A stretch of DNA of 24,301 nt from UHGV virus genome UHGV-1420800. The stretch is one strand, 5' to 3'. A program made the translations under genes and the position numbers. The notes beneath the pieces are model-generated. The model ran no database searches. It was not told the origin of the DNA and worked only from the letters and a program-made list of their open reading frames with translations. Source of the DNA: a virus. Of this stretch, positions 15,263 through 15,517 are shown in pieces (within the stretch, counting starts at the first letter, position 1; every line of letters starts with the position of its first letter).

Positions 15263-15517
15263 ATGACACACATGATCTTTCGTCATGGCGACATGAAGAA
15301 GTGGAAAGGCGTTGGCTACGACTTTGAAATCGTGAAAGCCGAAGAGCTTCAGGAATATCTGGATGCTGGCTGGTTTGCACATCCTGATGATCTTCTGAAG
15401 GATGTTGCAGAGCCAGAGCCAGAGCCAGAGCCAGAGCCAGAGCCAGAAGAAAAACAGCGTAAAAAGCCTGGTCGAAAACCTAAGGCGGCAGCAGATGAAC
15501 CTGACAACGAAGGGTGA
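15263..15517 (+). CDS. Hypothetical protein with (Glu-Pro)6 linker and basic C-terminal tail
   Basis: ATG 15263 with GGAG 7 nt upstream, 84 aa: N-terminal 48-aa segment, (EP)6 encoded by (GAGCCA)6, then [21 protein letters not shown]. Its 3' end overlaps the gp4 start by 23 nt. No family recognised. Confidence 0.5.
15410..15445 (+). repeat. Perfect hexanucleotide tandem repeat (GAGCCA)x6
   Basis: Six exact head-to-tail copies at 15410-15445; read as EP repeats in the 15263 frame and SQ repeats in the 15402 frame. Confidence 0.95.

Follow-up and report, generated by a model that had tools for sequence, protein, structure and literature searches.

The 24,301-nt stretch of the virus genome UHGV-1420800 that we analysed (hereafter the window) carries, at positions 15263-15517, a small open reading frame (ORF) that lies between the coat protein gene and the gene of the head-tail adaptor gp4 and contains six perfect GAGCCA repeats. 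Our comparisons show this small ORF to be a genuine late gene of a P22-like (Lederbergvirus-type) head cluster, transcribed via read-through of the coat terminator. Judging from its profile match it is a homologue of P22 orf69 and a member of phrog_1175, a family that is already known and annotated but uncharacterised, and its Glu-Pro repeat varies in length among closely related prophages. We suggest that its product may be a non-structural DNA-binding tether with two ends that acts in packaging or head completion.

Coding status, signals and relatives of the small ORF

The match to phrog_1175 (E 5.3e-37) places residues 1-82 on profile positions 1-72 of 72 and thus spans the full length of the profile. 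Residues 1-49 used alone as query retrieve 292 protein clusters at 90% identity, all named hypothetical, from Escherichia, Salmonella, Klebsiella, E. fergusonii and E. albertii, and the family has 31 representatives at 50% identity. When three enterobacterial subfamilies are compared, the ratio of nonsynonymous to synonymous substitution rates (dN/dS) of the N-terminal 49 codons is 0.12-0.21 in the frame of the small ORF versus 1.45-3.8 in the two other frames. The Glu-Pro dipeptide is moreover written by four synonymous units, GAGCCA in the window, GAACCA (10-12 copies) in the related loci L012 and L018, GAGCCG in L013 and GAGCCT (29 copies) in L016, and the same four units read in the gp4 frame change SQ to NQ, SR or SL. 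This comparative evidence marks the small ORF as a real protein-coding gene that is read in the Glu-Pro frame, and it is annotated as a gene in APC_JM3.2, Bas106 and RefSeq. The features of the locus, all on the plus strand, are the following.

13923..15218, +: coat (major capsid) protein gene, P22 type (PF11651 P22_CoatProtein, E 7e-166)
15224..15248, +: terminator-like hairpin GGGAGC-TTCG-GCTCCC plus T-run, 3' of the coat gene (hairpin itself 15224-15245)
15253..15256, +: Shine-Dalgarno GGAG of the small ORF, 6 nt upstream of its ATG (P22 has GGAG at the equivalent place)
15263..15517, +: small ORF, 84 amino acids plus stop (ATG 15263, TGA 15515-15517), phrog_1175 member
15263..15406, +: N-terminal module, residues 1-48, predicted to fold as a beta-hairpin and two helices (AlphaFold2 (AF2), GW motif, hhalign)
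15410..15445, +: (GAGCCA)6 encoding (Glu-Pro)6, acidic spacer predicted to be disordered, length-variable microsatellite
15452..15484, +: basic AT-hook-like motif, residues 64-74, aligned with KRRGRPPK, KKRGRRPK and KPRKGRKPK in homologues
15481..15488, +: TAAGGCGG, gp4 Shine-Dalgarno site, inside the P-K-A codons (CCT AAG GCG) of the small ORF
15495..15995, +: gp4 (head-tail adaptor / head completion protein), 166 amino acids (PF11650, E 1e-58; phrog_637)

An earlier reading of the letters alone (the sequence-only reading) had pointed out that the repeat is also open in a second frame, as (SQ)6 running into gp4, and in the window the gp4 frame is indeed open upstream to an ATG at 15402. This gives some room to the view that the small ORF is spurious and that the repeat is an N-terminal (SQ)n extension of gp4, which is how two GenBank records present it: gp4 is annotated with 197 amino acids in Dewey (PQ850600.1 7126-7719) and with 201 in IME10 (NC_019501.1 25847-26452), in each case from a start in the SQ frame, and both records omit or truncate the orf69-like gene. 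However, in P22, Sf6 and loci L013-L016 (the latter from two other subfamilies) the gp4 frame is blocked by a stop 1-14 codons before the gp4 ATG, inspection of the sequence upstream of 15402 revealed no Shine-Dalgarno with proper spacing, dN/dS exceeds 1 in the SQ frame, and the SQ peptide changes with each synonymous way of writing Glu-Pro. Because the SQ frame is closed in these relatives, and because the N-terminus of the window gp4 aligns with that of P22 gp4 (MQIKTKGDLV) from the first residue, the two long gp4 annotations are probably artefacts of choosing the longest ORF. The (SQ)n peptide thus falls away as an alternative product, and that the small ORF itself is spurious is extremely improbable.

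The signals around the small ORF are those that the sequence-only reading had described, namely an 84-residue ORF with a good ribosome-binding site right after the coat terminator, whose end overlaps the gp4 start by 23 nt; with the gp4 ATG at 15495, the small ORF ends 20 nt past the gp4 start codon. A longer, 100-residue version starting at GTG 15215 also appears in the ORF list, and that start falls within the coat stop and the terminator. The coat hairpin, which resembles the 't coat' of the Sf6 record and the stem-loop of the P22 record, has a folding energy of -21.1 kcal/mol (z = -3.3; none of 200 shuffles was as stable) and is the sole plus-strand terminator-like site within 14700-16100, an interval in which we found neither a sigma-70-like promoter nor a terminator of the small ORF's own. 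In the minimum-free-energy fold of 15210-15257 the terminator stem is lengthened by outer pairs of approximately 15211-15221 with 15246-15256, which take in part of the small ORF's GGAG, and in this model the ribosome-binding site of the small ORF may be partly masked in read-through transcripts.

At the other end of the gene, the window, P22, Sf6 and L013-L016 all keep TAAGGCGG at a distance of 6-7 nt before the gp4 ATG. Because the P-K-A codons of the small ORF contain this gp4 Shine-Dalgarno, the invariance of the basic tail is partly a double-coding constraint, and the same is true of the invariant DEPDNEG end. An overlap of the two genes is also found in P22 (17 nt), Sf6 (26 nt) and the distant loci L022 (11 nt), L023 (4 nt) and L019 (4 nt).

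In P22 the corresponding gene, orf69 (BK000583 6135-6344, annotated "unknown; putative"), likewise lies 3' of the coat stem-loop and overlaps the start of gene 4, and its product, MKIAIYKPGGSIMVWGVMAQMKVIDSSELPEYVKDGWLDHPSKLLPVEADDVKPRKGRKPKAVSDADKD, has the same three-part layout as the window protein. The window protein is approximately 32% identical to P22-type sequences, and it has in common with the closest known family (P22 orf69, Sf6 gene 6, HK620 hkbT, phrog_1175) the pattern (I/L)(Y/F)(K/R)xG...(V/I)..xEL.EY(L/V).(A/D)GW..HP..L, followed by an acidic stretch and a basic K..GRKPKA tail. Sf6 gene 6 (61 amino acids, "similar to HK620 hkbT") sits behind the 't coat' terminator, overlaps gene 7, and is the positional equivalent of the small ORF; its N-terminal part is far more divergent from the window protein, and any homology is putative. 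Unlike the window protein, P22 orf69 (69 amino acids) and Sf6 gp6 have a short, non-repetitive acidic stretch without the Glu-Pro microsatellite. A profile built from distant members only, with the window subfamily left out, recovers the P22-type proteins and also proteins from Burkholderia, Paraburkholderia, Vibrio, Tatumella, Symbiopectobacterium and many metagenomic contigs of ∼40 kb. In four very distant phages (L019, L022, L023 and L024) the order coat (PF11651), small ORF homologue, gp4 (PF11650) is found again; in L019 the overlap partner is a gp4-like gene, and in L024 one extra gene stands between the homologue and gp4. Judged by this gene order, the small ORF belongs to the P22-type morphogenetic module as one of its conserved genes.

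The small ORF is therefore no orphan: it matches phrog_1175 and P22 orf69, a gene long annotated and of unknown function. Our literature search found nothing on the function of P22 orf69, HK620 hkbT or Sf6 gp6, or on Glu-Pro repeats in phages, and searches of NCBIfam and Rfam gave no match. Against Pfam there was a match to the trypanosome PARP family (Trypan_PARP, 16.9 bits with a cut-off of 100), which we rejected as a weak match of composition alone; names such as "dihydrolipoamide acetyltransferase" on some cluster members were likewise set aside and are probably due to the same linker composition. A locus scan with protein P0138 as query found no loci, and one with P0137 found mostly close relatives drawn in via their PEPEPEPE pattern.

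Profile searches of the window proteins show that the P22-type head and ejection gene cluster is complete. Upstream of the small ORF the order is small terminase (PF16677), large terminase, portal (PF16510), scaffold (PF09306) and coat, and downstream of it gp4, gp10 (PF11134), a needle with an Sf6-type knob, a gp14-like protein, gp7, gp20 and a gp16-like protein. The Sf6-type tail needle (17414-18262) has a coiled-coil shaft and carries its knob (PF16532, E 5e-117) at the C-terminus, and the position of the ejection protein gp16 (20754-23147) is occupied by a 797-residue protein with an N-terminal SLT lytic transglycosylase domain (PF01464, E 3e-25). The gp16 of P22 is not known to have an SLT domain.

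The Glu-Pro microsatellite

Tandem Repeats Finder reports the repeat of the window as period 6, 6.7 copies and 100% matches at 15408-15447, and nothing comparable was found in shuffled sequences; the six exact hexanucleotides at 15410-15445 encode (EP)6, in agreement with the sequence-only reading, which had also predicted a variable locus and length changes that stay in frame. Both predictions are borne out by related genomes. Among isolated phages, Bas106 has 2 units, Dewey 6 (five GAGCCA and one GAGCAA), and IME10 and APC_JM3.2 have 8 each. The locus was found in 217 of 5426 complete E. coli genomes, and in an evenly spaced sample of 48 full-length matches the unit numbers, inferred from the match spans, are distributed as follows.

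Units (matches): 1 (6), 2 (7), 3 (3), 4 (6), 5 (3), 6 (8), 7 (4), 8 (3)
Units (matches), continued: 9 (2), 10 (1), 12 (1), 14 (1), 15 (1), 16 (1), 19 (1)

The list of best matches adds alleles with 11, 17, 18 and 29 units, and four long alleles that we read directly have 13, 20, 24 and 33 perfect GAGCCA units with frame and tail intact, giving an overall range among related E. coli prophages of 1-33 units between flanks that are 98-99% identical. In alleles with 6 to 33 units the flanks are 98.3-99.5% identical to the window, and point substitutions therefore build up far more slowly than copy number changes. Since copy number differs among nearly identical alleles, the repeat is a variable number of tandem repeats (VNTR) locus within a coding region, and the differences probably arise by replication slippage. 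All 18 alleles that were read (2-33 units) are in frame with the C-terminal tail, and we rejected a phase-variable contingency locus on this ground; because the unit is 6 nt long, the locus varies in length and does not switch on and off. Units of ES, EQ, ET, EL or DP, each one base away from EP, often break up the short alleles, and the long alleles read are pure. The repeat also varies in an allele of the gene that carries an additional domain (WDGH, described below).

Glu-Pro tracts are found as well in the distant members P0134, P0136, P0137, P0187, P0188 and P0211 and, written with other codons, in three enterobacterial subfamilies, so that a Glu-Pro spacer recurs within the family. Comparable tracts occur in TonB, as (Glu-Pro)n-(Lys-Pro)m, and in the EP repeats of trypanosome procyclin, and like these the window protein has a Glu-Pro tract followed by a basic stretch rich in Lys and Pro; such tracts are known to act as extended spacers. 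There is no homology to either, and the window protein differs in being cytoplasmic, phage-encoded, much shorter and polymorphic in repeat number. We found no paper describing this Glu-Pro repeat locus in the searchable literature. Nor is it one of the known generic E. coli loci for multiple-locus VNTR analysis (MLVA; CVN001-CVN017, ten-locus scheme), as the best matches of the published primers (PMC8143711) in the window have 4-9 mismatches.

Three side observations follow. Two assemblies labelled E. coli DH5alpha (NZ_CP026085.1 and NZ_CM135829.1) carry the P22-like prophage locus with 99% identity, as does E. coli W; the prophage is unexpected in a K-12 derivative and may reflect strain mislabelling or lysogenisation. 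On the minus strand an antisense ORF of 216 amino acids (15014-15664) covers the locus from end to end, with WLWLWL where it crosses the repeat; it shows no sign of coding and is probably a by-product of the stop-free repeat. Tandem Repeats Finder also reports short imperfect tandem repeats at 12608-12636, 18809-18850, 19222-19247 and 20241-20263 (periods 12, 21, 10 and 9), which sit inside the portal, gp7-like and gp20-like genes.

Candidate nucleic-acid-binding parts of the protein

The compact N-terminal segment, (EP)6 linker and basic tail that the sequence-only reading had distinguished are all present. In the AF2 model, based on a 48-sequence alignment, the predicted local distance difference test score (pLDDT) is 83-90 over residues 1-40, with a beta-hairpin formed by residues 2-14 and 17-25 and two helices (26-34, 41-48); the remainder is near 50 and predicted to be disordered, the Glu-Pro spacer being below 50. 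G36 and W37 are invariant in three family alignments. The strand-helix-GW motif of this N-terminal module is shared with a unit present in 3-6 copies in the C-terminal halves of GIY-YIG/NUMOD3 homing-endonuclease-like proteins (hhalign probability 95.2%, E 2.8e-8, over 20 columns; library-wide E 3e-7 to 5e-4), with K.V..EELQ.YLD.GW as the common pattern. The window protein differs from these endonuclease-like proteins in having a single copy of the module, with a longer hairpin, and no nuclease domain, and it gave no match to the GIY-YIG catalytic domain PF01541. In the metagenomic proteins P0135, P0139, P0140, P0145 and P0147 we observed 3-6 tandem modules of ∼40 amino acids with the consensus (R/K)xYIxKDGxxKxVxxEELQxYLDDGWxxGR. 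No Pfam family or solved structure was found for the endonuclease-associated module, which may be a new DNA-binding repeat of the NUMOD type.

The C-terminal part of the family occurs in three types. The first, to which the layout of the window protein corresponds, is an acidic stretch, often rich in EP, that leads into a basic K(K/R)(P/R)GR(K/P)PK motif; the second is an acidic stretch followed by a motif resembling helix-extended-helix (HeH), for example EERAKAVGLKIDGRWSPDKLAEKVAEA; and the third is a coiled-coil-like stretch with a basic end. The sequence-only reading had likened the basic tail to a DNA-binding or AT-hook motif, and this stands in part. In favour of the likeness, P0133, P0137 and P0149 have a canonical RGRP core at the aligned tail position and other homologues have HeH/SAP-like motifs; however, the window tail itself reads K-K-P-G-R-K-P-K and lacks the canonical R-G-R-P core. 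Like the AT-hook, an HMGA-type minor-groove binder, the tail is a short basic peptide with Pro and Gly beside an acidic region, and homologues carry KRRGRPPK or KRRGRPK. It differs in having PGRKP in place of RGRP and in doubling partly as the gp4 ribosome-binding site. For the second type, the distant homologue P0246 scores with Rho_N (E 1.2e-4, 22.4 bits, below the cut-off of 24.9) and SAP (E 0.013, 15.5 bits), and HeH-like motifs in P0232, P0241 and P0249 were identified by eye; with the Pfam models, no HeH, SAP or Rho_N motif was found in the window protein.

No DNA-binding fold was detected in the window protein, a Foldseek search against viral models returned uncharacterised proteins only, and PDB sequence profiles matched neither the family nor the endonuclease module nor the WDGH allele. 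In this allele, which makes up approximately one fifth of the related E. coli loci (protein P0132), a WDGH domain (PF25311, phrog_3769) is placed between the N-terminal module and the EP/basic tail. We found no literature on the function of the WDGH domain. An intact example with 203 amino acids and (EP)5 is ORF 203..994 of locus L026 (NZ_CP080255.1 1492423-1493759), which PGAP calls a partial pseudogene despite the intact 203-residue frame.

A proposed tether, its alternatives and their meaning

Taken as a whole, we consider the small ORF best explained, with a probability of about 0.5, as a late P22-like gene whose product would be a non-structural, DNA-binding tether with two ends that serves packaging or head completion. 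The N-terminal module would bind DNA, since modules of its kind recur in those halves of GIY-YIG homing endonucleases that are presumed to bind DNA; the AT-hook-like tail would be the second DNA-binding end, swapped for an HeH/SAP-like motif in other lineages; and the Glu-Pro spacer would join the two. We place the presumed action of this helper at DNA packaging or head completion because its gene is always found between those of the coat protein and the gp4 adaptor. The spacer tolerates an at least 33-fold change in length; for a tether, spacer length would matter little, and this would account for the persistence of slippage products.

Several points weigh against this proposal. The function is inferred from sequence comparison; the window tail has PGRKP and not the RGRP core of a canonical AT-hook; the conservation of P-K-A in the tail is partly explained by the embedded gp4 Shine-Dalgarno; and the link to the endonuclease module spans 20 columns of a module without solved structure or demonstrated DNA binding. 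The N-terminal domain could bind protein (gp4, portal or coat) instead of DNA. We also know of no essential gene at the orf69 position in P22 genetics, and any role is therefore probably an accessory one.

The nearest functional analogue that we can suggest, by analogy of position and build and not by homology, is gpFI of phage lambda. In lambda, as in the window, the major capsid gene (E) is followed by a hairpin with a TTCG loop, GGAGG, the ATG of FI and then FII, and gpFI is also a small protein; in the E-FI intergenic region (L025 1150-1215, corresponding to NC_001416 7149-7214) we see the GC-rich TTCG hairpin, then GGAGG, then ATG. The N-terminus of gpFI gives a weak SAP-like signal, and gpFI is reportedly absent from virions and built of two functional ends joined by an acidic flexible segment. 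Homology is ruled out by the absence of a match to PF14000 (Packaging_FI) in the window protein, P22 orf69 or Sf6 gp6 and by an hhalign probability of 1.3%, and we found no similarity to the fold of the gpFI C-terminal domain (PDB 2LSM); the positional and architectural analogy stays. gpFI is described as a chaperone for packaging which links the capsid with the terminase-DNA complex, and a recent review names no such accessory factor for P22 (PMC13595911). It is a tentative and rather doubtful extension of the tether proposal that the orf69 family is this missing packaging or head-completion factor of P22-type phages, an independent and non-homologous solution to the job of gpFI. One end (AT-hook-like or HeH) would then hold DNA, the other (the endonuclease-type module) would hold DNA or the portal-gp4 vertex, and the Glu-Pro rod would be an adjustable tether. 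If this were true, the range of 1-33 units, roughly 1-20 nm when extended, would be a natural experiment on the permitted length of the tether.

A protein-binding N-terminal domain would fit an assembly chaperone that binds gp4, portal or coat and escorts gp4, or times its addition to the portal after packaging, with the coupling of the two genes keeping their amounts matched. Consistent with such a chaperone are the overlap of the gene's end with the start of gp4, seen in the window, P22, Sf6, L022, L023 and L019, its lasting place beside gp4 across deep divergence and the absence of a detected DNA-binding fold. However, gp4 has its own strong and conserved Shine-Dalgarno, another gene intervenes in L024, and the AT-hook-like and HeH-like C-terminal motifs together with the endonuclease-type module point to nucleic acid, and we consider a chaperone unlikely. 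The same stop/start overlap, with the gp4 Shine-Dalgarno inside the ORF, and the extreme tolerance of spacer length could alternatively mean that the small ORF is a translated leader through which ribosomes open the mRNA and reach the gp4 start, the peptide having little or no function and the repeat being free to drift. Such a leader is quite improbable, as strong purifying selection acts on the amino acids of its N-terminal domain, G36 and W37 do not vary, the three-part architecture is kept at 20-35% identity, the family persists away from gp4 in L024, and the folded domain that is predicted here is not expected of a leader peptide.

The location among structural genes and a basic tail that could bind packaged DNA would also suit a minor virion or internal head protein, packaged with the DNA via its tail or decorating the portal vertex and missed as small. 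To our knowledge, though, orf69 and gp6 are not in the published virion protein lists or cryo-EM models of P22 and Sf6, and a range of 1-33 units is hard to fit with a fixed structural site. The internal proteins named for P22 are gp7, gp16 and gp20 only (PMC4992974), orf69 not being among them. The virion-associated role that the sequence-only reading had entertained thus finds no support in our analysis, and we hold it to be distinctly improbable. Finally, small and fast-changing accessory genes of prophages are often morons, anti-defence genes or lysogenic-conversion genes, and the EP tract is strongly acidic; on this account the gene would stand apart from morphogenesis and an arms race would drive the repeat variation. 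Yet the gene lacks both a promoter-like site and its own terminator, PADLOC returned no defence match for the small ORF, it has a fixed place inside the head module of very distant phages, and changes in spacer length leave a recognition surface unaltered, which makes a gene of this kind very unlikely indeed.

The DNA-binding tether thus remains the reading that we prefer. New, as far as the searchable literature shows, are how widely the EP tract varies in length, the deep synteny, the comparison of modules (endonuclease-type module, and AT-hook-like tail swapped for an HeH-like motif) and the hypothesis of a gpFI-like role. In practical terms, several GenBank records of gp4 are mis-annotated with the SQ-repeat extension, short-read assemblies will collapse or break the repeat, and it could be used as a fine-scale marker for tracking this group of P22-like E. 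coli prophages. P22 is among the best-studied phages, yet orf69, between its coat gene and gene 4, has been annotated "unknown" for decades. To this gene our analysis adds a conserved position, purifying selection, a modular build with two candidate nucleic-acid-binding ends and, in E. coli prophages, a hypervariable spacer between them, all of which bears on whether P22-type phages possess a gpFI-like helper of packaging or head completion.

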